Origin: a virus
DNA: 37,769 bases
Virus genome (UHGV): UHGV-1372291
Reading direction: 5' to 3' (one strand)
Shown: one piece after another, positions 11,060 through 32,524 of the stretch
How positions within the stretch are numbered: position 1 is the stretch's first letter
Layout of the letters: every line of letters starts with the position of its first letter
Translations under genes and position numbers: made by a program
The notes under the pieces: generated by a model
What the model saw: the letters and a program-made list of their open reading frames with translations, nothing else
Database searches by the model: none
What the model was told of the DNA's origin: nothing

Positions 11060-11595
11060 TATTTACCACCCCATAAACTTCCTATCATACTTCCATATCC
11101 TCCACCTTGAATACCTTTATTTTTATTTATACTTGTTATTTCGTCCATTTTTTTCATATGTGTGTAGTCCATAAAGGCATTAGCTACACTTAACCCTGCA
11201 CTCAATCCAAGTTGCTTATAAGTTGCTCCTAAATTATAATTATTTTGAGCTTTGGTTAATTTAAGTCCTCCTTGTATATCCGTTAGTGCTTCACTCTGTC
11301 CTGTCTTAGCTTCTAGGAATGATTTTTCATGTGCTACCATTCCTTTGCTAAATAATGTGCTAGCCGTATCTATTCCAGCATTAGCAAAAGCTGCTTTTTG
11401 AGATTTCATTCTAGTAGTCATCTCTTCCATAGCTGATGTATAGCTCCTCATAGTATTGGTAGTTTCTTTAGCTGCATTTACTTCTGCTGTTAAATTATTT
11501 AATTTTGTTTGATTCTTTGCTCTTCCAGCGTCTGCCACTGAACCGAATAGACTTAGTCCAGTGTTTGCTAATTGCATTATCATTAATGGATTCAT
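11059..11595 (-). CDS. virion-associated protein (178 aa), Gly-rich C-terminus
   Basis: ATGA-type overlap with the downstream gene; sits within the structural gene train. Confidence 0.35.
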   Translation of the reverse strand: MNPLMIMQLANTGLSLFGSVADAGRAKNQTKLNNLTAEVNAAKETTNTMRSYTSAMEEMTTRMKSQKAAFANAGIDTASTLFSKGMVAHEKSFLEAKTGQSEALTDIQGGLKLTKAQNNYNLGATYKQLGLSAGLSVANAFMDYTHMKKMDEITSINKNKGIQGGGYGSMIGSLWGGK

Positions 11596-11610
11596 ATTCT
11601 CACACTCCTC

Positions 11611-13407
11611 TTATCCTATTTCTGCAAATATTCCTACTATTTCAATTTTCTCATTATTGAGTTGCTCTATAACTAATTCCTCTTTTCCAATGTTGGCCAT
11701 GTCTATGTAGTGAATTTTTTCATAAAAATTATCTGTATTTTCTCCAAAGCCTACTGTTTTAGTTTGATTATTTATTTTTAAGTTATAATTTCCATAACAC
11801 AAAATTTTGCAATTTTTAAATCTTGCTTTCATTAAAAATTCTGGAATTGGCATTTGGTAGTTTTGTGACATAGTTGTTTTTGGTAGTTTTAACTTTAAAG
11901 GCTCTACTTCTGTTTCCGAATAAGTATATATATCTATATTTTCATTATTAACATTGAAGATATAGAGTTTATCATCTATATTAAGATATTCATTTATTCC
12001 AGGTAATTTAGGTACTCTAGTCCAACATAATATATTTTCTGAATAATTGTAGCTTAATGCTCTTCCACCACTTACTGTATCTACTCCTATAATGTTGTTT
12101 TTACCTAATTTATGAAAGTAAATATCATTAATGTTATCCATTAAGTGTCCAGAATATAGTGTTACTTCTTGCACTACATAGGCACTATCTGCCCCTACGT
12201 CTTGTATTTGATAGATTCTATTCGAACTATCAACATAGTATATTGCGTCGTCTGCCTCTGTCCAATACCCAAGCCCTTTAGGTCTTGGTAGTTTTTGGTC
12301 GTACAGTGCTGATGTTTCAGTAGTTAGTCCCTCATTTAATTGTGTAGAATAAATTCCTCTATCTGTTATTACTATCAAGGATTTATAAGCTATAAACTCT
12401 TTAACAGTATTAACTTCATTACCAGTAACAAAGGTAGTAAATCCATCATTATCATCTGTTGATTGTCTAAAGTTAGTAGAGTCATATACCCTACTTGACA
12501 CTATAGCTGATGGGTTCCCTGCAACATTTCCGAAGATTACTCTACCTTTATACTCTGCCACTACTGCTGGATAACCTCCATTGAATAGAGATTCAGAGAA
12601 AGTTATATCCAGGATATTTATTTTTCTTTCAGCCTCTGGAGTTGATGAGGTAGGAATATCTATTCCAGTTGCTGGTGCTGTAACTTGTGTAGTGGTTATC
12701 TTTTGTTTCCCATCTCTTCCCTCTATTTTATTAATTCTAAACTCTCCAGCCATATAGGAAATAGTTCCCTCTTTTAATTTGTCCAGGAATGTAGGTTTAA
12801 ATACAGGACTTGAGATAGTAGATTCAAAGACAACACTTGCTCCAGATTGATACCATTGAAATACTTGTTTTTCTTCATCTGTATATTGATATTGAGTTTC
12901 CACTCTTTTTACTGGAGGATTTACTATATTTTCCCAATACTCTACTACATCAAACTCTTGACTATCTTCTGTAACTCTTATCATCTCTGGTTTTTTATTA
13001 GCTACACAAGTTATAACACTGTTTTGGAATTGTGCTATACTTAGATTCTCGATCTCTTCATCTGTATAATTTACTTCTATTTCCTTTATAACTTCAAAGT
13101 TATCTTCTCTTAATATAATTACTTTTAATTCAGTAAATAAAAAAAGATACCCACTAAGCGAGGTATCTTTCTTTTGAATTTTATATTTAAAAATCTTGAA
13201 AGCATTTATAATAGTTTTGGTTGTAACTGCTAGAATAGTAGCAACTTTTTTTAATGCTGGGAAATTAGTTATTCCTGCTGAAGAGGTTATAAGTCCATTT
13301 TCTAAATAGGCTAATCCTCTGTTTGGTATATCTGTATCTACCCTAAAACATAGTGGTGGGTCTATCTCCCCTAAAGAGAACCTCCCCTTTTTTTCATAAT
13401 ATTTCAT
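11611..13407 (-). CDS. virion structural protein (598 aa), possibly tail tubular/baseplate-like
   Basis: Large ORF in the operon; no motif recognised. Confidence 0.35.
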   Translation of the reverse strand: MKYYEKKGRFSLGEIDPPLCFRVDTDIPNRGLAYLENGLITSSAGITNFPALKKVATILAVTTKTIINAFKIFKYKIQKKDTSLSGYLFLFTELKVIILREDNFEVIKEIEVNYTDEEIENLSIAQFQNSVITCVANKKPEMIRVTEDSQEFDVVEYWENIVNPPVKRVETQYQYTDEEKQVFQWYQSGASVVFESTISSPVFKPTFLDKLKEGTISYMAGEFRINKIEGRDGKQKITTTQVTAPATGIDIPTSSTPEAERKINILDITFSESLFNGGYPAVVAEYKGRVIFGNVAGNPSAIVSSRVYDSTNFRQSTDDNDGFTTFVTGNEVNTVKEFIAYKSLIVITDRGIYSTQLNEGLTTETSALYDQKLPRPKGLGYWTEADDAIYYVDSSNRIYQIQDVGADSAYVVQEVTLYSGHLMDNINDIYFHKLGKNNIIGVDTVSGGRALSYNYSENILCWTRVPKLPGINEYLNIDDKLYIFNVNNENIDIYTYSETEVEPLKLKLPKTTMSQNYQMPIPEFLMKARFKNCKILCYGNYNLKINNQTKTVGFGENTDNFYEKIHYIDMANIGKEELVIEQLNNEKIEIVGIFAEIG

Positions 13408-14084: not shown

Positions 14085-14783
14085 TTACCTTTCATTTTCT
14101 TGTGCCTCCTCTAGTATAATATTTTTCTTATACTTGTAATATGTATTCTTAGTTATCCCTAGCAGTGTAAAGACTTCTATATCTTTAAGATTTCCTCCAA
14201 AATCTTTAGCTAGTTTTTTAATTTTCTCTCTCATCTCCTTTTCTTTCTTGGTAGTATAAGTATCTCCTTGTTTTCTACCTAATACAGTTCCTTTAGCTTT
14301 GGTAACTCTTAGTCCCTCTTTTGTTCTTTCTCTAAGGTCTAATACTTCCTTTTCAGCCTGGTCAAATGCTATTTTAATTTGTTCTTGAGCTAATATCTTC
14401 AATACTTCATTGGTTGCGTCTATGTATATATCAGCTATTTTATTTCCTGTTGAATCTATTTTGTTTTCTAAAGCCTTTTTATAAAGGGCTGTGTTAATAT
14501 ATCCCTCTTTTAAAAATATAAGTTCAATATCTCTTTCTACAAAATTAAAATATTCTTTTATTCCCTCTTCTGCATTTCTACTCATTCTACTAACAGAATC
14601 AAATACAATTGTATCTCCAGGTTTAACTATTTTTTTTAGTTTACTCCATTCTTTCCTATCTGTTGTAGTTCCTGTGTATGCTTCTTGAAATACTTTAGCA
14701 GTTGGATATATCTTTATGATATTTTCCACCTGTCTTAAAATATTTTGTTTTTTTGTAGATACTCTGCAATAACCATATATCAT
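14085..14783 (-). CDS. small serine recombinase (resolvase/invertase family: Hin/Gin/Cin or plasmid resolvase type)
   Basis: N-terminus 'MIYGYCRVSTKKQNILRQ' (catalytic-Ser motif YxRVST). 'GDTIVFDSVSRMSRN'. Arm 'AEKEVLDLRERTKEGLRVTKAKGTVLGRKQGD'. C-terminal HTH 'LLGITKNTYYKYKK'. Confidence 0.8.
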   Translation of the reverse strand: MIYGYCRVSTKKQNILRQVENIIKIYPTAKVFQEAYTGTTTDRKEWSKLKKIVKPGDTIVFDSVSRMSRNAEEGIKEYFNFVERDIELIFLKEGYINTALYKKALENKIDSTGNKIADIYIDATNEVLKILAQEQIKIAFDQAEKEVLDLRERTKEGLRVTKAKGTVLGRKQGDTYTTKKEKEMREKIKKLAKDFGGNLKDIEVFTLLGITKNTYYKYKKNIILEEAQENER

Positions 14784-15318
14784 CTTTTATCTCTCCTTTT
14801 AGTATTTATTCTGTCGTTCGTTTCACTTAATACCATAATTATACTATTTTTAGAGATAAAAAACAATGTACTTTTAATACTTTTTTTAATAGGTTTGTTT
14901 TGATACTTTTTTGTGTTTTCTACTTTTTATATTAGTGGTTAAAACTATAAGTAAAAATTGTTTAGGTACAAAGTCACAATCTTTGTATTTTTTACACCTA
15001 CAATATCTAACTTTACTTATAACACTTACTATTTTTTTACCTCTCGGTAAAACTTTATATTTTACTTTGCTATGGTGCTTAGTTTTTTTCTTTTTGTTCC
15101 AGGTTTTCATTTGTTGCCTCCACAAAGATAACACATTCGTTATCTTTTCTTTTGTAGTTGTAACATTCTGGAATGAATCCAGCCGTTTCTAAAGCGACAC
15201 AATAATTTTAAGGTTTTTGAATATACAGCCAGAGCAATCCCCTCTTGATGACTTTAAAACTAATATTTTCTTATTCCCAAAAGTAAATTCTTTTCCAATT
15301 TCAAGATTTTTAAATTCT

Positions 15319-15876
15319 TCATCTGTCATTTCCTCTACTCCATTCATCATCAATTCTTTTTAAATTTCTTTCTCTCTTGCTTATAAAGGCTTTTATAATC
15401 TGGTCTTTATAAAACCCTTTTTCTCTATACATTGAAATTAGAGTCATCAATATATTTATTAAACCAGGAAAAACATATTGAGAATTTGGAAATACTATAC
15501 TTTTTATTAATTCAACTTCATTATCACTGCATAAAAAATCATCTGCTTTCCAAAGTTTATTCCAAGTTTGTTCTAATGATTCTATTGCATATTTTTCTGG
15601 TTCGTAATAATTTACTAATTGCAAATAGAAAAATAATATATCTACTGCCTCTATTAACATTTTTTCTCTATCAAAATCTTCTTTTAACTTCCAAGTTTTA
15701 TGAGTATCTCTAGTTTGCTCGTTAAACTCTATTATTTCAGCTATCATAGATAATAATATATCATCTCTGTATCTGTGTCTTGGTATAAATCCATTAGGTC
15801 TAGGCTTGCTTGCTTCCTCATCAAATTTTGCTTGAAGTTCTAGCAAGTCTTTAAATTTTATCTCTTTTTCTTCCAT
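15319..15876 (-). CDS. all-alpha NTP pyrophosphohydrolase (dimeric dUTPase/dCTPase-like)
   Basis: 'DDILLSMIAEIIEFNEQT' and 'EAVDILFFYLQLVNY' fit the paired helices with an acidic metal-binding pattern of the MazG/HisE/dimeric-dUTPase superfamily. Confidence 0.4.
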   Translation of the reverse strand: MEEKEIKFKDLLELQAKFDEEASKPRPNGFIPRHRYRDDILLSMIAEIIEFNEQTRDTHKTWKLKEDFDREKMLIEAVDILFFYLQLVNYYEPEKYAIESLEQTWNKLWKADDFLCSDNEVELIKSIVFPNSQYVFPGLINILMTLISMYREKGFYKDQIIKAFISKRERNLKRIDDEWSRGNDR

Positions 15877-16085
15877 TCCTCATCTTCTCCCATATTATAA
15901 AATCTTACCTTTGTTTCTCTTTTTGGTGCTGATGTAGTCAATCCTTCGTAATATCTTCTGTTTTTTTCTAAGTTTTTAGCTATCAACTCATCACACATTT
16001 TAGAAATTTTTTTAATTCTTTCTATTTCTTGTATTTTTTCTAAAACAATAGGTGTAACTCCCCAAGGACATTGTTTTCTTTCCAT
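15858..16085 (-). CDS. hypothetical protein (75 aa)
   Basis: ORF in a tightly packed gene train. Confidence 0.3.
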   Translation of the reverse strand: MERKQCPWGVTPIVLEKIQEIERIKKISKMCDELIAKNLEKNRRYYEGLTTSAPKRETKVRFYNMGEDEEWKKKR

Positions 16086-16103
16086 TTATCCCCCTTTTAT
16101 ACC

Positions 16104-16334
16104 TCAAGGTATAATTTTAACTTTTGAGTATTTATCTGCCTCTTTCCAAAACCTTTCCATTTTTCTTTTTTGCAATATAGAACTTATAGTTCTACCTAAT
16201 TTTAAACTAATATCTTTTAAATCATTTCTATAATCTAGTGCATACTCTAAGTCTTTACTTGTCCAAGGTTTGTTATGATTAAAATGATATTTAGGGTTGT
16301 AATTGATTAAATCTTTATTTTTTACCTTTTCCAA
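16104..16334 (-). CDS. hypothetical protein (76 aa)
   Basis: ORF in the gene train. Confidence 0.3.
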   Translation of the reverse strand: MEKVKNKDLINYNPKYHFNHNKPWTSKDLEYALDYRNDLKDISLKLGRTISSILQKRKMERFWKEADKYSKVKIIP

Positions 16335-16336
16335 CT

Positions 16337-16414
16337 CTACCCCCTTATCTTTTGTAATACATCAATTACTATTACTGCTACTACTAACATTAATATAATT
16401 TTAGGTCTTGTCAT
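16337..16414 (-). CDS. 25-aa hydrophobic peptide (MTRPKIILMLVVAVIVIDVLQKIRG), translationally coupled
   Basis: ATG at 16412-16414 overlaps the TGA of the MazG-like gene (ATGA). Single predicted TM helix. Below the ORF-track size cutoff. Confidence 0.3.
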   Translation of the reverse strand: MTRPKIILMLVVAVIVIDVLQKIRG

Positions 16415-17100
16415 TTCATCTCCTTGTTTTTGACTTTGATTCTTTTTATATTCCTATCCATTTTTCTTTTATACTCTTCTTCTAGCTCTTCATCATCAAA
16501 GTTATAAATTTCTTTTAAAAGTTGGAGGCAGATATAAACGTCTGCCATCTCTTCTTTTATCTCTTCTCTCCTATCAAAACCTCTTAAATCCTTACAGATT
16601 TCTTTTTGCAACTCTGATAATTCCTCTACTGCTATCATTTTGTTGACGTCAACACTTTGGTTTTCTAATAAGAGTTTTATATCTGGATTTTCTATTAAAA
16701 TATTTTTATTTAATTTTTTGTTTTCTAATTCTATTTCTTTTTTGGTAGCAAATCCAATATGAGAACTTTTTTTATTTTTCCATAAAAAATTAAATTTTTG
16801 TAACTTGAAAAATGTTTCTTCTTTTTCAATAAACCATTTATCAAAAATTAAAGTATATCTTCCAATTCTTACAACAGTTTGTTGAAAATATGGTATATCA
16901 TCAATTGAAAAATTTTCTGTATAATGTTCAAGAAGATATTTAAAAGCTTTTTCATTTTTTAACACAAAATCCATGTGATTTATTTTTGTTTCTTTCTCAA
17001 AATCTTTTCTTATTTCCTCTTCCATTTCCTCTTTAGTTTTTTTACTATCTATAGACAAATCCAATATTGAACCTGGAATAATATTAAAGCCTCTAAGCAT
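16411..17100 (-). CDS. MazG-domain nucleotide pyrophosphohydrolase (C-terminal MazG-like domain)
   Basis: C-terminal 'VEELSELQKEI...EEIKEEMADVYICLQLLKEI' matches the MazG EExxE...EExxD helical pair. Confidence 0.5.
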   Translation of the reverse strand: MLRGFNIIPGSILDLSIDSKKTKEEMEEEIRKDFEKETKINHMDFVLKNEKAFKYLLEHYTENFSIDDIPYFQQTVVRIGRYTLIFDKWFIEKEETFFKLQKFNFLWKNKKSSHIGFATKKEIELENKKLNKNILIENPDIKLLLENQSVDVNKMIAVEELSELQKEICKDLRGFDRREEIKEEMADVYICLQLLKEIYNFDDEELEEEYKRKMDRNIKRIKVKNKEMK

Positions 17101-17111
17101 TTTTACCCCTC

Positions 17112-17621
17112 CTAGAAAGGAAACTCTCCATCATCTTCTATTATTTTTCCATATTTTTGACTGTATTTTCTCCAAGTAATTGGTTCTTCTATGGTGTCCT
17201 TTATCTCTTTAGCTGTTCTCTTACTCTTAATTTCCACAAACGATTGAACTCTTCTTTCTGTTCTTCCGTCTACATTATGTTTACACTCAACTATAATACC
17301 TATTCCTTTTCCCTCAAGTTCTTCTATAACAAACTTTTCTCCTCTAACTACTGGACTTAATTCTGGTTTATTCTTAGTTAAATACATAAGATGTGCTATG
17401 TGTCTTAAATTAAATGCTATATCTTTTCCATCTTTAGCTTTAAAGAAAAGACTTAAAGGTAATATATCCTCATTTACCTTTATTGTAAGATTTAATGCTA
17501 CTGCCTTGCTATCTCCTGCCTCAAATAATTCTGCTTTTGTTATAACTCCTGTATAACAACCACTCTCTTCAATTATTACGCTATCTGCCTGTTCATTTAA
17601 ATATTTTTCATCTAATGTCAT
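17112..17621 (-). CDS. putative phage SSB-like protein (acidic DDGEFPF C-terminal tail)
   Basis: Ends '...IIEDDGEFPF', resembling the SSB D-D-D-I-P-F interaction tail. An OB-fold-like N-terminus is plausible but not proven. Confidence 0.35.
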   Translation of the reverse strand: MTLDEKYLNEQADSVIIEESGCYTGVITKAELFEAGDSKAVALNLTIKVNEDILPLSLFFKAKDGKDIAFNLRHIAHLMYLTKNKPELSPVVRGEKFVIEELEGKGIGIIVECKHNVDGRTERRVQSFVEIKSKRTAKEIKDTIEEPITWRKYSQKYGKIIEDDGEFPF

Positions 17622-17622
17622 A

Positions 17623-17886
17623 TTATGCCTCCTGTTCCCATTTATCTTTTTGAAATTTTTTATTAAATATTTTAGGTGGATTTACAAACCACTCTACACT
17701 GTCAAAGCCTGTATAGATATAGTTGTTAGGTTCTACTTTCTCATAATCTATCATTATACAGTCCTCAACTTTTCTAACTTGATGGTCTGATAATACCTCT
17801 GCTACTTCCTTATGGTTTTTACCATTAAAAAATACTGCTTTTACTCTGAAATTACTTTCAATATTTCTATATATCATTCCACTCAT
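17623..17886 (-). CDS. hypothetical protein (87 aa)
   Basis: ORF in a 1-nt spaced train. Confidence 0.3.
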   Translation of the reverse strand: MSGMIYRNIESNFRVKAVFFNGKNHKEVAEVLSDHQVRKVEDCIMIDYEKVEPNNYIYTGFDSVEWFVNPPKIFNKKFQKDKWEQEA

Positions 17887-18221
17887 TATTTCTTTTCTCC
17901 TTTTTTATCTTTATCAAATGGTAACTGTTCTTTTTTTATAGCTTCCTCTATCTCTTCTGGGCTTAGTCCTGCTTCAAATTTTTCAAGGAATTTATCATAA
18001 TCTACATTTTTATATTTTCCTTGAGATTTTTCACTATCAAAATATACTTGTAATGCTTGTTTCTTAGATAGTTTTATAGATATTTCTAAATCTCCATCTT
18101 TGTATTTTAAGATAACATTAGCATTACTTACTTGATGTCCAGAAGGAACTAACTTAGTTGTAGGTTTATATTTTTTTCTAAATGATGTATCTACAACCTC
18201 CATAACTTTAATATCTACCAT
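17886..18221 (-). CDS. hypothetical protein (111 aa)
   Basis: ORF overlapping its neighbours by 1-7 nt. Confidence 0.3.
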   Translation of the reverse strand: MVDIKVMEVVDTSFRKKYKPTTKLVPSGHQVSNANVILKYKDGDLEISIKLSKKQALQVYFDSEKSQGKYKNVDYDKFLEKFEAGLSPEEIEEAIKKEQLPFDKDKKGEKK

Positions 18222-18505
18222 TCTTCATCAACTCCTTTTAAAGCTCTTCTAGCTTTTTCTGTTTTATTTTTCTTTATCTTTTTTAATAAGTTTTCAATAC
18301 TAATTTCTTTCCAGCTCTCTGCTCCTCTTTCTAGTATTTTTATAGGATTTTTAGCTTTAGGTTTCATTCTAAAAAAATATCTAGCTGCCTCATACATAGT
18401 TATGAACGATTCCTTAAATTCCATTCTTTTATACTCTTCTCCATTTATAACTACTATTTCTTTGATTGATTCTACTATGTAGTTATAGCTTTCTAAATTT
18501 ATCAT
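18215..18505 (-). CDS. hypothetical protein (96 aa)
   Basis: ORF. Confidence 0.3.
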   Translation of the reverse strand: MINLESYNYIVESIKEIVVINGEEYKRMEFKESFITMYEAARYFFRMKPKAKNPIKILERGAESWKEISIENLLKKIKKNKTEKARRALKGVDEEW

Positions 18506-18616
18506 TGTTACCCCCTTTTTTGCTTATAATCTAATTAAAACATTCAAGTCTTTAAATGTTTTAACTAGAGCATAAGCTCTAGCTTTATGTGTGTTGTAAG
18601 TTATTTTAAGAAAGTT

Positions 18617-19066
18617 TTATTTTTTATGTGCCATTCCTAAAGCAAATCCAAGTCCATACCATATTTGATTTTTAACTCTTTCTAATAGAATTTCAGCTCC
18701 TATTTCCTCTGAATAGTTTTTATCATCTACACTAGAAGTTGATTCTATTCCAGTAAATCCATTAGCTAGTTTATATTCCATTACAGTAGTTTTCTTACCA
18801 AACATAATTTTAGTGTAGATATTTTTCTCTACTATGAAGTCATCTACTAATTTTTCTGGAATTTTATTATTCTCTATTTCATATGCTTGCTCTAAAAATT
18901 TATCTTTAGGACACATAGAAACATATCCATCTTCATAGAATACTTTGAATACTCTTTCATCTCCATCTTCATTAGCTGGTAACTCCCAACCTCTGCTTTG
19001 ACAATATTCTTTCCTACTCATTTCCTCTACTTCTACAACCTTAGTTGTTAGAAATTGCTTTTTCAT
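18617..19066 (-). CDS. hypothetical protein (149 aa)
   Basis: ORF with AGGAGG RBS 8 nt upstream. Confidence 0.35.
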   Translation of the reverse strand: MKKQFLTTKVVEVEEMSRKEYCQSRGWELPANEDGDERVFKVFYEDGYVSMCPKDKFLEQAYEIENNKIPEKLVDDFIVEKNIYTKIMFGKKTTVMEYKLANGFTGIESTSSVDDKNYSEEIGAEILLERVKNQIWYGLGFALGMAHKK

Positions 19067-19088
19067 TCCTACTACCTCCTACCAATTC

Positions 19089-19196
19089 CTACTTATTTTT
19101 TATCTTATAATCTCTTTTACATTTTCTATATCCCCATACAAAACCACCAGCTATTGCAATGACTGCTCCAAATAATTCAATTATTAATCTACTCAT
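19089..19196 (-). CDS. 35-aa membrane peptide (MSRLIIELFGAVIAIAGGFVWGYRKCKRDYKIKNK)
   Basis: ATG at 19194-19196 preceded by AGGAGG (revcomp of 19201-19206) with a 4-nt spacer. One TM helix plus a basic tail. Missed by the ORF track because of its size. Confidence 0.4.
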   Translation of the reverse strand: MSRLIIELFGAVIAIAGGFVWGYRKCKRDYKIKNK

Positions 19197-19205
19197 ATTT
19201 TCCTC

Positions 19206-19514
19206 CTATAAATCTACTTCTATTTTTTTTAATTGCTTTTCTAAAACTGCTATCATTTTATCTACAAATTCAGGTGTTTTAATACCTTGATAGTTCCCAT
19301 TTTCTTTTATTTTTTTGTGATATTCCAACTCTTGCCCCCAAATTTGTTTTAACATTTTTGCATACATTCTACATATTGCCTTTTTAGTTAGATCATCTAT
19401 GTCTTTTCTTTCTTTATTTTCTTGGTATAAATTATCCCATTCAGTTACAAAATACCCCTCCATTCCTGAGTCTAATTCTAATATAAATACATTTAAGCCT
19501 TTTATCTTTTCCAT
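19206..19514 (-). CDS. hypothetical protein (102 aa)
   Basis: ORF immediately downstream of the capsid terminator/attenuator hairpin. Confidence 0.3.
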   Translation of the reverse strand: MEKIKGLNVFILELDSGMEGYFVTEWDNLYQENKERKDIDDLTKKAICRMYAKMLKQIWGQELEYHKKIKENGNYQGIKTPEFVDKMIAVLEKQLKKIEVDL

Positions 19515-19598: not shown

Positions 19599-20864
19599 CT
19601 ATTCTGATTTTTTAGCTGCTTTTGTAGTAGTTGTTGCTGGTGCTTCTTGTGTTTCAGTAACTGCTGCTTGTTTGTTAGCTGCTCTTAATCTTTCTAGTTC
19701 TAACTCTTTTTCTACTCTCTCCATTCTCATTTTTTCAATCTCTTTTTCCTGCTCTAGTTGTTCATTATTTGCTAACGACATTGTATTCATAGCCATAGCA
19801 GATACTGGTTCTACTGAGGCTGCAGCTGCTCCTGTTGTTCTCTTATACTTGAAAAAGAATACTCCCTCTGGATTTAATAATTCTGTTGAGTTATACACTT
19901 CAACATCTAATAAGTATGATTTTTTATCAGCTATATAGTTAGCTTCTGGTGTTACTGATACATCTTTGTTATCTTGTCCAAAACTTCTTTCAACCATAAC
20001 TACAAAATATCCTACTCCTTCACTACCTGTTGGATATAAAGTTTTGTCAAATTGGAATAAGCTTTCTACATGTCCACCCATCAACATAGATAATGGTTTT
20101 CCTGTTTTTCTTGTTTCTCCCTCTCCAAAATCTTTACTTGAGAATCTTTCAGCATTTGCAAGCTCTGTATTTCCTTCTACACCAGACACTATAGCTATTC
20201 TCAATCCTTGAGCTTCTGCTGCTTCTTGAGCTTGTAACATCATTTGTCTGAATAGTTTTATATTTTCTGGAGTATCAAACTCTTTTGTTTCATCTCCGTA
20301 AAATTGACTTTCTGGAATAGTTAAATCAAATGTTTTGTTGTTATTGTCATAAACTGTTCTTTTCTTATTTGTTATACAATCTTTGAAAAGTTCAGCTATT
20401 CTTTTAGCACATTTTCCACGAGTTGCAGCTATTTGTGCATCTATTATTACCGATTTTTCATCTAGTTGAGAACGGTCGAAATCTCTTCTCTTAACATATA
20501 CAGGACATTCCATTCCTGTTGGATATACTCTAATACTTTGTAAGAAAGTTCCTGTATCTTGTCCTTTAACCTCTCCTGGTGTATAATTAGGTCCAGACAT
20601 AGCTTGCTTATCATCTATATCTCTAGCCTCTAATCTTCCAGATACATAGAATAAAGAATAAGCCTCTTTTGTTGAAGCTGATTTTTCAAACCAACCCTCA
20701 AGTGGCATTTTGTTTGTTGTATTTAAGGCTCTTTTTACACTATTTACATATTTAGCCTGTTCTCCTGCTGAAAGGTTTACGTTTCCGTATTCATATCCTC
20801 CAGCTCCAGCAAATAGCTGGATATTTAATCCTGTGCTTCCTAATAAAGTTTTTTCATTTCTCAA
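19599..20864 (-). CDS. major capsid protein (with cleavable N-terminal L27-like leader)
   Basis: 421 aa immediately downstream of the scaffold. N-terminus 'MRNEKTLLGSTGLNIQLFAGAGG'. The terminator hairpin directly after it is typical of a highly expressed capsid gene. Confidence 0.55.
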   Translation of the reverse strand: MRNEKTLLGSTGLNIQLFAGAGGYEYGNVNLSAGEQAKYVNSVKRALNTTNKMPLEGWFEKSASTKEAYSLFYVSGRLEARDIDDKQAMSGPNYTPGEVKGQDTGTFLQSIRVYPTGMECPVYVKRRDFDRSQLDEKSVIIDAQIAATRGKCAKRIAELFKDCITNKKRTVYDNNNKTFDLTIPESQFYGDETKEFDTPENIKLFRQMMLQAQEAAEAQGLRIAIVSGVEGNTELANAERFSSKDFGEGETRKTGKPLSMLMGGHVESLFQFDKTLYPTGSEGVGYFVVMVERSFGQDNKDVSVTPEANYIADKKSYLLDVEVYNSTELLNPEGVFFFKYKRTTGAAAASVEPVSAMAMNTMSLANNEQLEQEKEIEKMRMERVEKELELERLRAANKQAAVTETQEAPATTTTKAAKKSE

Positions 20865-20882
20865 GTATTCCTCCTTAAAATC

Positions 20883-21545
20883 TTATTTTATAAAATCCCA
20901 ATAAAATGGGTCATCTTGCTTTTTAGCTTGTGCATATTCTTTTAATTTATTCATTAAACCTTTATCATTTGTATCTAAAGATTGATTATAAGCCTCAATG
21001 AATCCATCATGTGTATAATCTGTTGAAAGCTGTGTTTTTCCAACTCCTACTACACTTCCTGTACTTCCTGCTTTCATTTCCATGTATTCCTTTAGGATTT
21101 GAGCTCCTATTGCATTTTCTGCCATAGCTCTATATACTATCTGTCTATCTGTGTCTTTCTCTGCTCCTATGAAGTTATTTATTGCTTCCATACTTGCATT
21201 AAGTTCTGGAGTGAAAGCTGCTTTTTGTTCTGCTAGATAAGCTTTTCTATCATCTAGTCTTGATTTAATGTACTCTGGAGTGTAACCTTTTTCTTGAGCC
21301 TCTGTGATATATGGTGCTATATCTCCAATCTCTTGATAATCTTCTGCTTTTATTCCTTCCCAAGTTAATGGATCTGCTTTAGGTTCTGTCCCTGCTCCAT
21401 TATCTCCACTTGGTTGTGGTGGTTCTCCCCCAGCTCCTGTATTTACTGTTGGCTCTGGATTTGGTGTAGGTTCTCCTCCTGTATCTCCTCCCTCTGCTCC
21501 TCCAAATAATTGGATATTAAATTTAAATCTTTCTTTATCAGTCAT
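20883..21545 (-). CDS. scaffolding protein (likely start MTDKERFKFNIQLFGG at 21545)
   Basis: Gly/Pro-rich N-terminus followed by a helical acidic body, located between portal and capsid. The ATG at 21543-21545 overlaps the upstream stop (ATGACTGA). The ORF-track start at 21578 is probably too long. Confidence 0.5.
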   Translation of the reverse strand: MTDKERFKFNIQLFGGAEGGDTGGEPTPNPEPTVNTGAGGEPPQPSGDNGAGTEPKADPLTWEGIKAEDYQEIGDIAPYITEAQEKGYTPEYIKSRLDDRKAYLAEQKAAFTPELNASMEAINNFIGAEKDTDRQIVYRAMAENAIGAQILKEYMEMKAGSTGSVVGVGKTQLSTDYTHDGFIEAYNQSLDTNDKGLMNKLKEYAQAKKQDDPFYWDFIK

Positions 21546-21759
21546 TTTCTTCTTTTGCCTCCTTTGTAAATATCTCAATATATAAACTATTTGCTCCTGT
21601 TATCTCCTTTACTTTACCTGTTGTATCAACTCCTTTTTCATTCATGATAGAAACTCTATTGAGTTCGAGCATTAAGTATAGTTCGATTAGTCTTTTTAAA
21701 GCTCCATCATCTCTATATCTTCTCTTTAACTCTTCGTACTCTTTTCTCTCTACTGTCAT
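21538..21759 (-). CDS. hypothetical small head-module protein (73 aa)
   Basis: ORF overlapping the portal stop (ATGA) and the scaffold start. Confidence 0.35.
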   Translation of the reverse strand: MTVERKEYEELKRRYRDDGALKRLIELYLMLELNRVSIMNEKGVDTTGKVKEITGANSLYIEIFTKEAKEEND

Positions 21760-23267
21760 TGCTCTATCATTCCCCCTTGTTGTTGTGCAGCTATCATAGC
21801 ATTCATTTCCTCAACTTGCTTTTCTGTTTCCTCTCCAGATTTCCACTCTTTGTTATTGATTCTAAACCTTTTTTGTTGAGCATTTATGTATTCTGCTTGG
21901 TTCATATTAGCTGCTGCAACTTGAGGTCCCAGAGTGCTTGCTATATTTTGGAAATACAACATATTTCTTTCAAGGTCATCTTGGTCTTGTGCTATTGTTA
22001 GTGCATTGTAGAATCTTATCTTTAATCTTGGATTTTCCTGTAAAGCTTTAATTTTAGATATATCTATAATGCTAATCTTTTGTAGACATTGGAAAACTTT
22101 TATAACTATCTCTCTTAAAAGTTCCCTTTGCATTAGTGCATATGTTGGCTCTATTTGCTTAGCGAACTCTGTTGTTACTAGCTGTGTTGTTGTAGCAGTA
22201 ACATTCTTTAGCTGGTCTAAGTTTTGAGCCGTTTCAAATATGTTGATGTAGAATATATCTCTTAAAAGTTCCTTGTACATATCCAGGTTAAAGAACTCCA
22301 TGTTAGCATTCTCTCCCCTGTTGAAAGGTATTATTTGATTTTGCCCTGGGGATTGTCCCATCATAGATATAGCTCCTGGCTCATCTATTCTTGAGTTCTG
22401 AATATATTTAGCTTGCCCATAACCTAAATAGCTTGGTCTAGCCTGTTTCTTAGCAATACGTCTGATGTTAGCTTTAACTTCTTTTAGCCCCTCAATCTCC
22501 ATTATCGCTTTAACACAAGGTCCTATACCATATGGACTATCTCCAATGCTTTCGTATCTAGCTATTATCCAAGGGTTATAGTCATCAATTCTATAATCTA
22601 AAATATCTGTAAACTCATTTGAAGTAGATACTACATAGTGAAACATTTTAGTTTCTTGGTCGTATATTGTACCTTCCCACAACTCAATCTCGTCATCTTG
22701 CGACATACTTTGAACTTTTTCAGAGTTATAAGCATTTTCTCCAAAAAGATTAAGAATCTGATGTTTTCTCACTTTACCTGCATTGTAGAATGTATCTCCA
22801 GGTTGTTTACCTCTTCTTTTAGTAAGATAAACATTTATATTGGGTACTGGTTGAAATTCCACAGGATTTGCAATTTTACCAGTAAATCTAACTTTGAATA
22901 CTGCTGTTCCTATTAGATAGTCCATAAGAATTACAGCTTTCTCTGTTTCAAAGTTAGAATTTTCTTGAATCTCATCAAATACTATTTCTGTTATTCGTCT
23001 AAAGATAATCTTGTCATCTCTTGATATATCTTCAAACCTTGGTGTTTCTATCCAAGCCCAGATATGATTACTATTAAGTATCATAGCTGATAACTTGTTA
23101 GCTAACTTAGTAGCATATGCTAGTCCTGTACTGTCTACACCATTTAAATTAATTTCTCTTGGTAGAAAATGTGTTCTAGCTTTCAAATACCAAGCTAGTA
23201 TTACATTTCTTTCCTGTTGTGCCTCCTGGAATCTACTACGAAATAGATTTTTAATTCTATCTTCCAT
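21756..23267 (-). CDS. portal protein
   Basis: 503 aa, directly upstream of the scaffold and capsid genes; size and position fit a portal. No catalytic motifs are expected for this protein. Confidence 0.55.
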   Translation of the reverse strand: MEDRIKNLFRSRFQEAQQERNVILAWYLKARTHFLPREINLNGVDSTGLAYATKLANKLSAMILNSNHIWAWIETPRFEDISRDDKIIFRRITEIVFDEIQENSNFETEKAVILMDYLIGTAVFKVRFTGKIANPVEFQPVPNINVYLTKRRGKQPGDTFYNAGKVRKHQILNLFGENAYNSEKVQSMSQDDEIELWEGTIYDQETKMFHYVVSTSNEFTDILDYRIDDYNPWIIARYESIGDSPYGIGPCVKAIMEIEGLKEVKANIRRIAKKQARPSYLGYGQAKYIQNSRIDEPGAISMMGQSPGQNQIIPFNRGENANMEFFNLDMYKELLRDIFYINIFETAQNLDQLKNVTATTTQLVTTEFAKQIEPTYALMQRELLREIVIKVFQCLQKISIIDISKIKALQENPRLKIRFYNALTIAQDQDDLERNMLYFQNIASTLGPQVAAANMNQAEYINAQQKRFRINNKEWKSGEETEKQVEEMNAMIAAQQQGGMIEQ

Positions 23268-23276
23268 AGTATCTCC

Positions 23277-23552
23277 TTATCCTATTGTCTGGGTACTACT
23301 CTTCTTAAGTAGTCCTAGATTACCTTGTCTTAGGCTCTCCTGGAATTGTATTGCGGTGTTTCTTTGCTTGTCTTTTTCTGCTTGCTGCTTTTTAGCCTCT
23401 GCCTCTTGTTGCTTTTTTAGTTCCTCTTCCATTCTCTTTTGCTGCTTTTTAGTACCACTAAAGTCAGTAGCTCCAAGCGTAATGGTATCAACAAGTCCTC
23501 CTAATACATTTCCACCACCACCAAACAATTGGATATTTGGTTTAAATTTTAT
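23277..23552 (-). CDS. small head-module protein with L27/Prp-like N-terminal motif (KFKPNIQLFGGGG), probable non-canonical ATA start
   Basis: The ORF track starts it at TTG 23526-23528. The in-frame upstream sequence encodes IKFKPNIQLFGG, nearly identical to the scaffold leader RFKFNIQLFGG. An ATA codon at 23550-23552 lies 9 nt after AGGAGG. Confidence 0.4.
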   Translation of the reverse strand: MKFKPNIQLFGGGGNVLGGLVDTITLGATDFSGTKKQQKRMEEELKKQQEAEAKKQQAEKDKQRNTAIQFQESLRQGNLGLLKKSSTQTIG

Positions 23553-23553
23553 A

Positions 23554-24033
23554 TTATCTCTCCTCCTTTTCCCATGCTTCTACATCATAGAATTTATCAA
23601 GGATTTTTCTTGCTTTTCTAAAAGTCCCAACTTTTCTAAAGTTATATCTTTTAAAAAACTTCATAGCCAGTTTATATGCTGGACTTTCTGGAACTATATT
23701 TAATTCTATTTTTTTATAAAGTTTATCAAGCATACTACAAAATTTAACGAAATCATCTAAGAACTCTTTTCTCTCTGCGAGGTTATCTCCTAGAAAAATA
23801 AAGTCTAGTGATATTATTTTGTCATGTGGTATGTTATAGATACAGCCCATATAACCTACTATGTGTCCATCATGGATAGATAACATCATTAGTTCATCTA
23901 GCCCTTTTATATTTAGGTCATCTAATGAACCTGTGAAAAACTTATACTTTTCAGTGTTTGCTTGTTGCTCCTCTTCTAGTATTTCTTTTAGCACTAGAAA
24001 AGCTTTATCTTCTCTTGATACTCCCTCAAGCAT
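23554..24033 (-). CDS. hypothetical protein, possibly GNAT-fold acetyltransferase
   Basis: C-terminal 'PAYKLAMKFFKRYNFRKVG' resembles the GNAT motif-B region. Weak. Confidence 0.25.
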   Translation of the reverse strand: MLEGVSREDKAFLVLKEILEEEQQANTEKYKFFTGSLDDLNIKGLDELMMLSIHDGHIVGYMGCIYNIPHDKIISLDFIFLGDNLAERKEFLDDFVKFCSMLDKLYKKIELNIVPESPAYKLAMKFFKRYNFRKVGTFRKARKILDKFYDVEAWEKEER

Positions 24034-24522
24034 TTACACAACCCCCTCAACTTGTAAGAATTTCTTAGTCTTGTCATCTCTTTGCTCTTGCTTGTCCTCT
24101 GTCTTTTCTCCCAGCTCCAATGAAACCTCAATGTTATTAGTTCCACCTTGCTTGTCCCAGCCTGCCAGAGTTTCTATTCTTTGCGACAGTTGAACTGCTG
24201 CTTTAAAATCTACAAATTTACCTGTTTTTTCTAGTAGTCCTTTGTCTGTAAGTCTTATAATCTTTGTATCTTCTAGTCCTGCTGCCTGTTCAAATAGCCC
24301 TTGCATTATTGCTAAGTGTCCCATTTTATCTCTTCCAAGCATAAAGTCCACCATTTCCAAGTGTTCCTCTATTTGCTTGTTGATCTTCTTACTACTCATT
24401 AGCTTGTGCATTAGCTTTAGGTCGAATGGGATTCCAGCAGCTTGCATGGCTTTCATTCCATTTTTACAAACTAGAAATGATGATATGAACTTCTCTTCTT
24501 GCTCTTTGGTTATTCCTGCCAT
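24034..24522 (-). CDS. terS: terminase small subunit-like protein (Terminase_2/P27 family-like)
   Basis: 'ITKEQEEKFISSFLVCKNGMKAMQAAGIP' matches the LTxKQxxF...NGxxAaxxAG HTH pattern of small terminases; 162 aa. Confidence 0.5.
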   Translation of the reverse strand: MAGITKEQEEKFISSFLVCKNGMKAMQAAGIPFDLKLMHKLMSSKKINKQIEEHLEMVDFMLGRDKMGHLAIMQGLFEQAAGLEDTKIIRLTDKGLLEKTGKFVDFKAAVQLSQRIETLAGWDKQGGTNNIEVSLELGEKTEDKQEQRDDKTKKFLQVEGVV

Positions 24523-25598
24523 TCTAACTCTGCCCCCTCTTCTCCTAGTCTTATTTTTATACTAACTTTAGCTATTTTTTTGAGTAGTTTTTCCAATCTT
24601 TCAAAGTTCTTGGAATAAGACTTTTTAATCTCTCCAAGTTTTTCTAACTCTTCCAGCTTTTCAATAACTTTCTTTTTCTGGTATTGAATAGCTCTTTTTT
24701 TAATACTCATATTATTTTCAGTCATTACAACATCAAGTAATCTAATATCAAATATTAAATACTCTTTCATTATTAGTCTTTCTGCTAGCCCCTTAGTTCC
24801 TGGAGCAACTATCTTTTTCAATTCTTTGATATCATAGTTTAACTCTTTGACTATCTGCTCTGTAAGTATTGCTCCTATTGTTTTTCTAAGTGCTGCAGCT
24901 AGATTATCTTTAGTTATTCCACCTAGATGATTTAAATTATAGGTCTTGAGGTGTGGAGGTCTTAGCGTCAACTCTCCTCTTAATGCTTGTCTTTTCTTTG
25001 CTACCTCTTTTCCTGTATCTTCCATCTCTTTTCTTTTGGAATAGATTTTAAAATAGCTAGTTGTTTCTCTGGACTTTTTCCCTCTCTCTTTGAAGTCTAC
25101 TCCATCAAGTTCCAATCTTTTTTTATTGTCTGTATCAAAATACATTCTTGAAGTTGGAAAGATATTTTTATATGCTCTATAGATTAAATTTAGAACTTGA
25201 TAATAATTTCTGATGTTCTCAACTTCTAATTGGTTTGATAAGTCCAGACTAACTACTCTAATATCTTCTCCTTTTACAAGTTCCCCTGTTATGCTTCTAA
25301 GTATTAAGATTAATTCTTGATGTACTTGAGCAATAACTTTTTGATTTGTTACTAGCTTGTAATTGTCATTGTTATCATATCTGGAATAACTGAAAGAGAT
25401 TAATATATTTTTTTTCTCATCAATGCTGATGTAGTTTAACCAGTTATATTTTTTTAATCTGGTGTTTTTAAATATTATTTTTTTATTTTCATTTCGTGCC
25501 TCTTCTTCCAGTAGTATGCTAGTTGATTGAATTATGAAGTCTAGTTCATTCAACTTGGCTGGATAACTTATACTTGCAGTATCTACAATCCAACCCAC
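24510..25598 (-). CDS. hypothetical protein (362 aa), first gene of the long leftward operon; possibly DNA-binding or replication related
   Basis: ORF with a basic C-terminal coiled-coil; no motif recognised. Confidence 0.3.
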   Translation of the reverse strand: MGWIVDTASISYPAKLNELDFIIQSTSILLEEEARNENKKIIFKNTRLKKYNWLNYISIDEKKNILISFSYSRYDNNDNYKLVTNQKVIAQVHQELILILRSITGELVKGEDIRVVSLDLSNQLEVENIRNYYQVLNLIYRAYKNIFPTSRMYFDTDNKKRLELDGVDFKERGKKSRETTSYFKIYSKRKEMEDTGKEVAKKRQALRGELTLRPPHLKTYNLNHLGGITKDNLAAALRKTIGAILTEQIVKELNYDIKELKKIVAPGTKGLAERLIMKEYLIFDIRLLDVVMTENNMSIKKRAIQYQKKKVIEKLEELEKLGEIKKSYSKNFERLEKLLKKIAKVSIKIRLGEEGAELEWQE

Positions 25599-27735: not shown

Positions 27736-28251
27736 ATGAAAAAATTATTAAATTATTTAGGGTGCAGAAGTAAACAAGACTTAATATATCAATTTAAAAA
27801 TAGCGATTCCGAAGAGATAGCAGAGTTGAGAATGGCTTTTGAATTAATAGCAGAGGATAGAGTAATGGATGATGAAATAAGATTAAAAGATAAGAAAAGT
27901 TTACTTGATTTTCTTAAATTCAAAGTAGGTTTTAAAGAAAGAGAAGAGTTTGTAGTAATTTTCTTAAATAATTACAACGTAATGACAGGATATGAAGTAT
28001 TATTCACAGGAACAATAGATAAAAGTGCTGTATATCCAAGAGAGATAGCAGAAAGAGTTTTTAAATATAAAGCTAAGGGAGTAATATTTGCACATAATCA
28101 TCCAAGCGGAAATTTAAGACCAAGTAAGCAAGATATTCAAATAACAGAACATATGCAAGAGTTCCTGGAAATGATAGATGTAAAACTTCTTGAGCATATA
28201 ATTATCACAAAAGATGGACATTTTAGTTTTTTACAAGAGGGAATAATTTAA
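27736..28251 (+). CDS. RadC-like JAB-domain protein
   Basis: 'FAHNHPSGNLRPSKQDIQITEHM' contains the RadC/JAMM HNHPSG signature. Confidence 0.75.
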   Translation: MKKLLNYLGCRSKQDLIYQFKNSDSEEIAELRMAFELIAEDRVMDDEIRLKDKKSLLDFLKFKVGFKEREEFVVIFLNNYNVMTGYEVLFTGTIDKSAVYPREIAERVFKYKAKGVIFAHNHPSGNLRPSKQDIQITEHMQEFLEMIDVKLLEHIIITKDGHFSFLQEGII

Positions 28252-31390: not shown

Positions 31391-32515
31391 ATGAGTCAAG
31401 AAAAATATAATCTAATACATCATAAAGATTTCCATAATCTCCAATTACAAAATTATTCAGTAAAAGAAAGAGCAGTTTTTTTAGCTCTTTGCTTAAAGAT
31501 TATGGAACAGGAAGATGAAGTTGTAACTTTTAAAGTTTCAGAGATTTCAAAAATTGCAAATTATTCTGCAAGAAAAAAAGGAGATAATATTTATAGTTTT
31601 TTAAAAGAATTAAGTGATAAGCTTTTAAAATTACAGGTTATGCAAATAAGAAAAGATGAAGGATTTACAAATATGGTCTTGTTTCCAACCTTTTCAGTAG
31701 ATGAGAAAGAAAAAACAGTTAGAATAAGAATAAATCCAGACTATAAATATTTGTTAAATCATTTACAAGCTCCTTATACAATTCAAGCTTTGATAGAATA
31801 TTCTAATTTAAAATCTGGATATTCACAACTAATGTATTCTATTTTGAAAAAGTGGAATAAAATAAAAAAAGTAACTATAACTCTTGAAGATTTTAGAAGA
31901 GAATTAGGAGTTCCAGAAAGCTATGATACAGCAGTTATAAATAAAAGAGTATTGCCTCCTATTATGAAAGAGTTACCACAATATTTTGAAGGTTTGAAAG
32001 TAAAAAAAATAAAAGATGGTAAATTTATAAGTGGGTTTGAGTTTACCTGGAAAGATAACAAGGTTGATGATGTAGTAGTTGATGAAGAGGAAATAGAGAT
32101 TTCAGAAGAGTTACTATCAGCTATCGAGAAAGCAGAGAAAAATAGATTTATAAAACCTTTCTTAACTGATGATAATATAATAAAACTTTTAGATAAATTT
32201 AGCCAAGAGCAATTAGAAAAAGGATTGAAAGCTGCTTATGATTTAATTAAAACAGAATTTACAAGTCTTAATTATTTGATAAAAGTTATTGAAGATAGAT
32301 TGAATAAACCTAAAAGAAAAATAGTTATAAGAAGAACTAAGGAAGCAGAAAAAATAAAAGAAGTTGAAGAGCCAGTAGTCAAGAAAAAAACAACTCCACT
32401 AACTAATGAAGAATATCAAAATGCTATGAAAATATATCAAGCTACTGGAGAGGATTTTGGTTATGAACCAGAGGAAGTAAGAGAGTATATAAAAAAATAC
32501 AAGGATTTAATATAG
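31391..32515 (+). CDS. rep: iteron-binding replication initiator (Rep_3/RepB-like)
   Basis: N-terminal 'NLQLQNYSVKERAVFLALCLKI' matches the Rep_3 NxLxxAxYxLSxxExRL motif. Placed immediately downstream of iterons and an AT-rich region. Confidence 0.65.
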   Translation: MSQEKYNLIHHKDFHNLQLQNYSVKERAVFLALCLKIMEQEDEVVTFKVSEISKIANYSARKKGDNIYSFLKELSDKLLKLQVMQIRKDEGFTNMVLFPTFSVDEKEKTVRIRINPDYKYLLNHLQAPYTIQALIEYSNLKSGYSQLMYSILKKWNKIKKVTITLEDFRRELGVPESYDTAVINKRVLPPIMKELPQYFEGLKVKKIKDGKFISGFEFTWKDNKVDDVVVDEEEIEISEELLSAIEKAEKNRFIKPFLTDDNIIKLLDKFSQEQLEKGLKAAYDLIKTEFTSLNYLIKVIEDRLNKPKRKIVIRRTKEAEKIKEVEEPVVKKKTTPLTNEEYQNAMKIYQATGEDFGYEPEEVREYIKKYKDLI

Positions 32516-32524
32516 GGGGGTAAA

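Follow-up and report, generated by a model that had tools for sequence, protein, structure and literature searches.

How does a phage head mature when three of its proteins begin with what look like protease-cleavage leaders and profile scans recognise no protease gene in its genome? The question is raised by positions 19599-23552 of the virus genome UHGV-1372291, a stretch of 37,769 nucleotides (the window) whose head-region genes all lie on the minus strand. This segment spans exactly from the stop codon of a major capsid gene to the ATA start of a small open reading frame (ORF), and three of its proteins share a short N-terminal leader that matches the leader of Fusobacterium ribosomal protein L27. 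We assign a probability of roughly three in four to the reading, reached in silico, that the three are head pre-proteins whose L27-type leaders would be trimmed by the host protease Prp; both the cleavage and the host are predicted from sequence.

The three leaders differ in length and end alike. The major capsid protein (19599..20864, minus strand; 421 amino acids, TTG start, HK97 fold) begins with an 18-codon leader (MRNEKTLLGSTGLNIQLF; 20811..20864, minus strand) that is followed by AGAGG, and the predicted cut after Phe18 would create the mature N-terminus AGAGGYEYGNV... and lower the calculated mass from 46.9 to 44.9 kDa, a loss of 2.0 kDa. The protein in the scaffold position (20883..21545, minus strand; 220 amino acids, true ATG at 21545) has a leader of 14 codons (MTDKERFKFNIQLF; 21504..21545, minus strand) followed by GGAEGG; here, the predicted cut after Phe14 would yield GGAEGGDTGG... 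and a loss of 1.8 kDa. The small basic protein encoded upstream of the portal gene (23277..23552, minus strand; 91 amino acids) has a leader of 10 codons counted from ATA, (I/M)KFKPNIQLF (23523..23552, minus strand), followed by GGGG, and the predicted cut after Phe10 would release GGGGNVLGGLVDTITLG... and lower the calculated mass from 10.1 to 8.8 kDa, a loss of 1.3 kDa. The common core is (L/F/P)-N-I-Q-L-F'(A/G)-G, where the prime after Phe marks the predicted cut. In a structural model of the capsid protein, disorder extends over residues 1-31, and residues 33-46 form the first helix.

We searched all six frames of the window with the pattern N[ILVM]Q[LFHYM]F[AGS] and found exactly three sites, all of them the head-gene leaders, located within the first 10-18 codons of the capsid, scaffold-position and small-protein genes. 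Shuffled sequence contained only 0.07-0.13 matches per window (maximum 2 in 300 shuffles). The synonymous codons of the leaders differ among the three genes (CAG/CAA; CTA/TTA/TTG; GCT/GGA/GGT), and therefore the likeness is held at the peptide level; a recent intragenomic duplication as the source of the leaders is ruled out by the same differences. Prp substrates carry their leaders at the extreme N-terminus, with about 9-18 residues that end in (D/N)-(L/I)-Q-(F/L)-F, and the leaders found here have 18, 14 and 10 residues and all end in NIQLF.

The determinants of Prp cleavage have been described. Prp is encoded by every species that has a long L27, and the consensus leader is MLxx(D/N)LQ(F/L)F'A(S/H)KK (PMC9405229, PMC9261936). 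In the substrate, Phe at P1 stacks against the catalytic His, and Gln at P3 is indispensable (changing Q to A or Q to E abolishes cleavage); Asn at P5 contributes a hydrogen bond within the peptide, the residues at P4 and P6 are hydrophobic, and the one at P1' must be small (PMC9405229, PMC9261936). The L27 of F. nucleatum reads MQFLFNIQLF'AHKK, and NIQLF is present in no other of about 25 tabulated species; most Firmicutes L27s contain NLQLF or NLQFF, not NIQLF, the listed Lachnospiraceae L27s have NLQFF and Erysipelothrix L27 has DIQLF (PMC9405229). The leader of F. animalis L27 is LFNIQLFAHKK (PMC12341114).

We compared the phage leaders to L27 sequences directly. In an F. animalis record from PLSDB, rplU, a gene for a 109-amino-acid 'ribosomal-processing cysteine protease Prp' and rpmA stand in a row, and the rpmA product starts MQFLFNIQLFAHKKG, with the leader MQFLFNIQLF'AHKKG. 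A Fusobacterium-type L27 query returned 120 close L27s, a survey centred on Fusobacterium-like sequences; the leader parser picked out 31 of the 120 with the ending NIQLF, which is also seen in further Fusobacteriaceae sequences where AKKK follows the cut. F. animalis, F. pseudoperiodonticum, F. necrophorum and 'Fusobacteriaceae bacterium' metagenome-assembled genomes (MAGs) have (L/F)NIQLF'A(H/K)KK, the F. pseudoperiodonticum and F. necrophorum clusters reading LNIQLF'AHKK. Leptotrichiaceae L27s (Leptotrichia, Sneathia, Caviibacter, Oceanivirga and Pseudoleptotrichia) have LNLQLF'ASKK, and those of Psychrilyobacter and ZRK30 have E(I/L)QLF'AKKK. The scaffold's FNIQLF is the leader ending of F. 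nucleatum and F. animalis L27, the capsid's LNIQLF'A is that of F. pseudoperiodonticum and F. necrophorum, and the small-protein leader has the 10-residue length of the Fusobacterium L27 leader. P1' is Ala in the capsid and Gly in the scaffold and small protein; Ala and Gly interchange among homologues, Gly being smaller than Ala. At the level of the aligned residues, the phage leaders equal the Fusobacterium L27 variant residue for residue, beyond a general likeness to L27. The original prediction that three head-module proteins share an NIQLF(G/A)G leader resembling the L27 site cut by Prp is thus upheld, as is its statement that Fusobacteria carry Prp and an extended L27 (PMC9405229, PMC12341114).

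The leader of the small protein depends on where its ORF begins. No ATG, GTG or TTG precedes the motif, and an in-frame TAG is located at 23582..23580, 14 codons upstream of the motif's Asn; therefore, the start of this ORF is most likely the ATA at 23552..23550, a rare start codon that is allowed in table 11. The ATA lies 1 nucleotide after the stop codon of the upstream gene (TAA, 23556..23554) and 9 nucleotides downstream of a Shine-Dalgarno sequence, AGGAGG (23562..23567, minus strand), that is conserved in related loci L002-L004 and L008-L010. In L008, a more distant relative, the ribosome binding site (RBS) and ATA are both kept and the leader codons have undergone four synonymous and zero non-synonymous changes, which argues that the leader is translated. 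We considered and rejected an upstream in-frame ATG as the start: the TAG rules it out in the window, and L008 is without that stop, yet its RBS and ATA are conserved. The use of ATA bears out the earlier reading of this N-terminus as 'IKFKP...'. Standard ORF callers begin the small ORF at an internal TTG (MFGGGG...) and lose the leader, and several database capsid entries are mis-started inside theirs (for example, P0015, MFAREAGAGG).

The leader is conserved among relatives whose surrounding sequence has diverged. The capsid belongs to a small family (33 clusters at 90% identity; 26 representatives in a set of 1.84 billion proteins), and the contigs that encode its members are about 36-38 kb long, like the window. 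Capsid homologues keep LNIQLF down to 36-39% identity, with variation in residues 2-12 and in the length of the segment after the core; in the capsid alignment, F18 is invariant and Q16 is conserved at 90% or more. Scaffold homologues keep the motif to about 40% identity with diverging flanks, and the relatives' scaffolds carry FK(L/F)NIQLF'(A/G). We tallied the distinct leaders of capsids, scaffolds and small proteins from the window and twelve related loci (n = 34), using a pattern with no constraint on P5 and P6 and with a choice of residues at P4, P2 and P1'. P1 is Phe in 34/34 leaders, P3 is Gln in 33/34, P4 is Ile in 32/34, P5 is Asn in 31/34 and P6 is Leu or Phe in 31/34; P1' is Ala in 25, Gly in 7, Ser in 1 and Asp in 1, and P7-P9 are variable. 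Within this alignment, the invariant and near-invariant positions coincide with the Prp determinants known from crystal structure and mutagenesis.

The leader also behaves as a detachable module. In L005, L006, L007, L011, L012 and L014, the homologue of the small protein is leaderless, and its first residues correspond roughly to the mature N-terminus predicted here (..GGAIGSIVDTVTG..). Distant leaderless members of the capsid family (P0234, P0238-P0255) have an 'MA...' start a few residues before the conserved GEQAKY helix, near the N-terminus predicted for the mature capsid. The L010 capsid belongs to a leaderless subfamily, with its ATG directly after the RBS and likewise near that N-terminus, and the L010 scaffold and small protein keep their leaders. 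L010 (4154..6009) is a mosaic with a portal and small protein nearly identical to the window's, a capsid subfamily at 39% identity and a scaffold with a different C-terminus; its capsid has the same charged C-terminal extension as the window's.

We then asked which enzyme could act on these leaders. Scans of the window's approximately 40 ORFs with Pfam, PHROGs and NCBIfam profiles detected no protease of any kind, in agreement with the original prediction that the head module has no prohead protease gene. Peptidase_Prp (PF04327) with its His/Cys dyad was absent from the window by profile scan and by tblastn, where the relatives' phage Prp found nothing (E > 5). Two relatives with capsids 48% identical to the window's, L012 and L014, have a full-length Peptidase_Prp gene downstream of their head genes (8453..8782 and 7193..7516, respectively). 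The product has 109 amino acids and the motif GHAGY...GKDIVCAS, matches PF04327 with an E-value of 8e-24 (84 bits compared to a cutoff of 27) and shares 46% full-length identity with F. animalis Prp and 35-38% with Lachnospiraceae Prps. The scaffold site in these two loci is NIRLF'DG, with Arg at P3 and Asp at P1'. Their sequences hint at a phage Prp with shifted specificity.

A more distant homologue of this Prp is encoded by L013, an unrelated siphovirus with an SPP1-type portal and a PF05065 capsid. Its gene lies inside the head module (10001..11987), between a Phage_min_cap2 (PF06152) gene and the ORF upstream of the capsid, where it occupies the place of a prohead protease. The ORF upstream of the capsid (a scaffold by position) begins MKRKWMDLQLF'ADGG, and the capsid begins ...KKMNLQRY'AAS. 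These gene neighbourhoods provide independent comparative evidence, drawn from sequence, that L27-type leaders on head proteins accompany Prp-type proteases, and phage-borne Prp together with L27-type tags may be a widespread, portable head-maturation module. Because the tags are present in the window and the enzyme gene is not, the window phage would use the Prp of its host.

Several features point to that host. For the Rep3 initiator (31391..32515), the full-length matches that rank best come from plasmids of Cetobacterium somerae, Fusobacterium varium, 'Fusobacteria bacterium ZRK30' and F. nucleatum, and the best matches of RadC (27736..28251) are on a Cetobacterium plasmid and the F. vincentii chromosome. 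Based on these matches, the exact match to the L27 leader and the Fusobacterium-like Prp of the relatives, the host is most likely Fusobacterium or a close Fusobacteriaceae relative. The guanine-cytosine content of the window is about 30%. The best ParA matches are to Bacteroidota at about 34% identity and are uninformative on the host, and the window contains no tRNA genes that would hint at one. A host in which the leaders could serve as Prp substrates would encode Prp and a matching long L27; when we compared the rpmA N-terminus and looked for prp, as had been proposed, the F. animalis rplU-prp-rpmA cluster supplied both, Fusobacterium itself being indicated as host by the Rep3 and RadC matches.

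In the proposed mechanism, the capsid, scaffold-position and small basic proteins would be made as pre-proteins whose leaders mimic pre-L27. The host's essential cysteine protease Prp, which removes MQFL(F/L)NIQLF from pre-L27 by recognising P6-P1, chiefly P3 Gln and P1 Phe, together with a small P1', would cut the three pre-proteins after Phe and leave mature proteins that begin AGAGG..., GGAEGG... and GGGGNV.... In the capsid, the cut would take off a flexible stretch that precedes the N-arm, as in Staphylococcus phage 80alpha, and the phage would need no prohead protease of its own. The cleavage event, its position and its purpose are predictions. By analogy with 80alpha, the leader may serve folding or co-assembly more than the cut itself, and the leaderless L010 capsid points likewise.

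Several observations weigh against host-Prp trimming, and some of them would fit a leader that acts as a folding, assembly or chaperone-docking signal in the procapsid, with the Prp cut being incidental, partial or absent, especially at the F'G sites. Cleavage is experimentally known for L27 alone among Fusobacterium Prp substrates. Prps are reported to be very substrate-specific, an S. aureus peptide not being cut by C. difficile Prp. Gly at P1', present at two of the three sites here, is absent from the published Prp substrates that we found (Ala, rarely Ser). The leaderless L010 capsid indicates that heads of this type can do without a capsid leader. In 80alpha, assembly requires the scaffold N-terminus to be intact at the outset and cleavage of capsid and scaffold is dispensable, so that cutting may not be the selected function (PMC5744158). 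All three tagged proteins are head-module components, as an assembly signal would have it. We nevertheless consider this explanation unlikely: the conserved positions are the protease determinants (P1 Phe, P3 Gln, P5 Asn and small P1') and residues of host L27, homologues without a leader begin close to the predicted cut, and relatives carry a Prp gene. It is also compatible with trimming by host Prp, rather than exclusive of it. Compared to such a signal, the notion that the shared leader is a chance likeness or the residue of a recent duplication, and has no function, deserves next to no weight. The motif is short (five to seven residues), but three matches were found where about 0.1 were expected, all N-terminal; the copies differ in their synonymous codons; and conservation of the motif at 36-65% identity while its flanks diverge refutes the idea.

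The enzyme and the host could each be other than proposed. An unrecognised phage-encoded protease might cut the leaders in place of host Prp: proteins of 362 (24510..25598), 159 (23554..24033), 665 and 1842 amino acids have no detectable family, so that a novel protease is still conceivable, and some relatives encode a protease of their own, a Prp. We regard this as highly improbable, as the window scans gave no protease signature and no similarity to the relatives' Prp, the L008 homologue of the 159-amino-acid ORF weakly matches an acetyltransferase and not a protease, and a private enzyme would not need an exact copy of the host's L27 leader. Alternatively, the mechanism may be right and the host wrong, the phage infecting another Prp-bearing lineage with an NIQLF-type L27, such as a Firmicute. 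The species genome collection yielded one relative only, a contig of 6.6 kb that has NIQIF leaders and was assigned by binning to a Faecalimonas (Firmicutes) MAG. The whole window had no DNA match in PLSDB even at E ≤ 10, a collection that includes the F. vincentii chromosome and a 219-kb F. animalis record, and there was no clustered regularly interspaced short palindromic repeat (CRISPR) spacer or prophage match to the Fusobacterium records searched. With DIQLF in Erysipelothrix L27, P4 Ile is not unique to Fusobacteria, and the L27 survey was centred on Fusobacterium, so that NIQLF elsewhere is possible. The Faecalimonas label is weak evidence, however, the binning of a 6.6-kb phage contig probably being unreliable. 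Rep3 and RadC have their best matches in Fusobacteriaceae, the relatives' Prp is closer over its full length to that of F. animalis (46%) than to Lachnospiraceae Prps (35-38%), and the Lachnospiraceae L27s in the literature have NLQFF. A different host is accordingly a very improbable alternative to Fusobacteriaceae.

The predicted host-Prp trimming would take place in a head module of T7 type. From the ORFs of the 37.8-kb window, the 5'-to-3' gene order on the minus strand is a terminase-small-like gene, a 159-amino-acid ORF, the small ORF, the portal gene, a 73-amino-acid ORF and the genes for the 220- and 421-amino-acid proteins. The portal (21756..23267, minus strand; 503 amino acids) is of T7 gp8 type (PF12236 Head-tail_con, E = 7.6e-29; phrog_332, E = 4.9e-40) and is followed by scaffold and capsid genes, the order of a T7-type head module, with the scaffold assigned by position and composition. 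Searches of isolate-phage DNA and proteins with the head module found no capsid relatives, and the portal had only remote matches to T7-like marine phages (23-25% identity); therefore, the module is without a characterised relative.

The 421-amino-acid protein, whose TTG start is preceded by AAGGAGG at 6 nucleotides, had no match among Pfam, PHROG and NCBIfam profiles. We modelled it with AlphaFold from 18 homologues (predicted local distance difference test, pLDDT, 67; predicted template modelling score, pTM, 0.60) and compared the model to the PDB with Foldseek, which gave 372 matches at E ≤ 1e-3 (best 3.6e-11); all 50 matches listed of the 372 are phage HK97-fold capsid proteins and encapsulins. 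Judged by this model, it is an HK97-fold major capsid protein. Its C-terminus (residues ~346-421; 19599..19830, minus strand) is an extension of about 75 residues, Ala-rich and then charged, with a coiled-coil-like helix (EQLEQEKEIEKMRMERVEKELELERLRAANKQ...); it is found in some relatives only and missing from homologues of 334-347 amino acids, and could be a built-in decoration or cementing arm. The 220-amino-acid protein has no family match in the same profiles, is acidic (isoelectric point 4.5), has an N-terminal linker rich in Gly and Pro, and was modelled by single-sequence AlphaFold as all-helical with low confidence (pLDDT 53.5). We infer that it is the scaffold from its composition and its position between a T7-type portal and the capsid.

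Downstream of its leader, the small basic protein continues with a Gly-rich segment, which gives way to a charged helical region. Its PHROG matches are weak (phrog_26964, 7e-05; phrog_3112 'virion structural protein', 1.7e-03), and every relative examined has, in the corresponding place, a homologue with the conserved C-terminus ESLRQGNLGLLKxKxxQTIG; a role as a minor virion or internal protein is probable. The 73-amino-acid ORF (21538..21759, minus strand), between portal and scaffold, is without a leader and without a match in Pfam, PHROG and NCBIfam; all relatives have an ORF of 72-82 amino acids at its position. The 159-amino-acid ORF (23554..24033, minus strand), flanked by the terminase-small-like gene and the gene for the small tagged protein, is found at this place in every relative; in L008, its homologue weakly matches GNAT acetyltransferase (PF13420). 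A PDB sequence search with the 159- and 362-amino-acid ORFs gave nothing useful. The terminase-small-like ORF (24034..24522, minus strand) has a weak Terminase_2 match.

Elsewhere in the window, profile scans identified the large terminase subunit (1613..3124), a tail fibre with collagen triple-helix repeats (225..1604, minus strand; PF01391, E = 3e-22) and a protein with a Gp10_C baseplate-type domain (37066..37698, minus strand). Other recognised functions are tail proteins, a holin, an endolysin-like protein, a single-stranded DNA-binding protein (SSB), Sak annealase, Gp157, RadC, dUTPase, resolvase, Rep3 and ParA. A non-structural block (14085..19514, minus strand) with resolvase, dUTPase_2-family, MazG-like, SSB-like and N4 Gp49/Sf6 gp66-family proteins and small ORFs lies between the capsid and tail genes and splits the structural module. 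The plasmid-type maintenance set consists of the Rep3 initiator (PF01051/PF21205) with an adjacent ParA ATPase (31391..33283, plus strand) and a serine resolvase (14085..14783, minus strand); L008 has the same Rep3. No integrase was detected in the window, and its gene content suggests a phage-plasmid (episomal prophage). The window seems to represent a complete genome with its ends within the tail-fibre region, and no exact terminal repeat was detected in it.

Two further consequences can be considered. Tagged head proteins, produced late in infection at hundreds of copies per particle, might titrate the low-abundance, essential Prp, so that L27 maturation stalls and host ribosome assembly is blocked. 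If this were true, head maturation would double as host shut-off, and the Prp-bearing L012 and L014 would have uncoupled both; we consider it a doubtful idea. A weaker and likelier corollary is that the tag could be a sequence 'barcode' predicting the host genus of uncultivated phages, because it copies the host L27 leader residue for residue. A tag that tracks the host's L27 variant would be a simple host-prediction marker for metagenomic phages, and the predicted F'G sites would be natural alternative substrates for studies of Prp specificity. Prp is under investigation as a target for narrow-spectrum antibiotics, and Fusobacterium is medically relevant, with few of its phages characterised.

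The closest known system is Staphylococcus phage 80alpha, whose capsid (gp47) and scaffold (gp46) are cut F'A by host Prp (PMC5744158), as had been stated when the leaders were first noticed. Both phages have an HK97-fold capsid and tags on capsid and scaffold, and neither has a phage prohead protease; the 13-14-residue leaders of 80alpha end in the leader of its own host's L27 (KLNLQHF'A and KFNLQFF'A compared to KLNLQFF'A), and the scaffold leader here, KFKFNIQLF, shares a basic-Phe-Lys-Phe/Leu prefix with NKLKFNLQFF of gp46. The differences are as clear. 80alpha is a siphovirus of a Bacillota host with NLQFF and demonstrated cleavage, whereas the window has a T7-type portal, podovirus-like tail genes, a predicted Fusobacteriota host, NIQLF and predicted cleavage; its capsid and scaffold lack detectable sequence homology to those of 80alpha, and a third tagged protein and P1' Gly at 2/3 sites are found here. 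The motif is also present on the phage 80 capsid protein and the phi13 major tail protein (PMC5744158). As here, the same tag sits on non-homologous virion proteins and is thus portable, but those are single tagged proteins of staphylococcal phages and here three occur in one head module.

Compared to Fusobacterium pre-L27 (rplU-prp-rpmA), P6-P1 is identical, (L/F)NIQLF, with a small P1', and the small-protein leader has 10 residues too; the phage sites differ in having AG or GG after the cut in place of AHKK, and the tagged proteins are unrelated to L27. The capsid-processing cysteine protease of Cp-1 belongs to MEROPS clan CR, as does Prp (PMC9405229). Together with the Prps of L012/L014 and L013, it represents phage-encoded enzymes of the same family or clan for head maturation, accompanied by like leaders on scaffold and capsid, whereas the window phage lacks a gene of this kind and would depend on its host for the enzyme. 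The head module of T7 (gp8, gp9 and gp10) shares the PF12236 portal, the portal-scaffold-capsid order, small virion-protein genes upstream of the portal and the lack of a prohead protease, but the capsid and scaffold here have no detectable similarity to gp10 and gp9. T7 head proteins are not known to be proteolytically processed.

In the literature searched, Prp-dependent head maturation was reported for Staphylococcus phages only, and a 2025 preprint mentions only 'some staphylococcal bacteriophages'. Compared to these reports, the window suggests an extension to another phylum, that of its predicted host, with a tag that follows that host's L27 variant. It would also place the system in a podovirus-like, plasmid-maintained phage with a T7-type portal, and add to it a third tagged protein that probably starts at ATA, candidate F'G sites and relatives that carry a Prp gene of their own.

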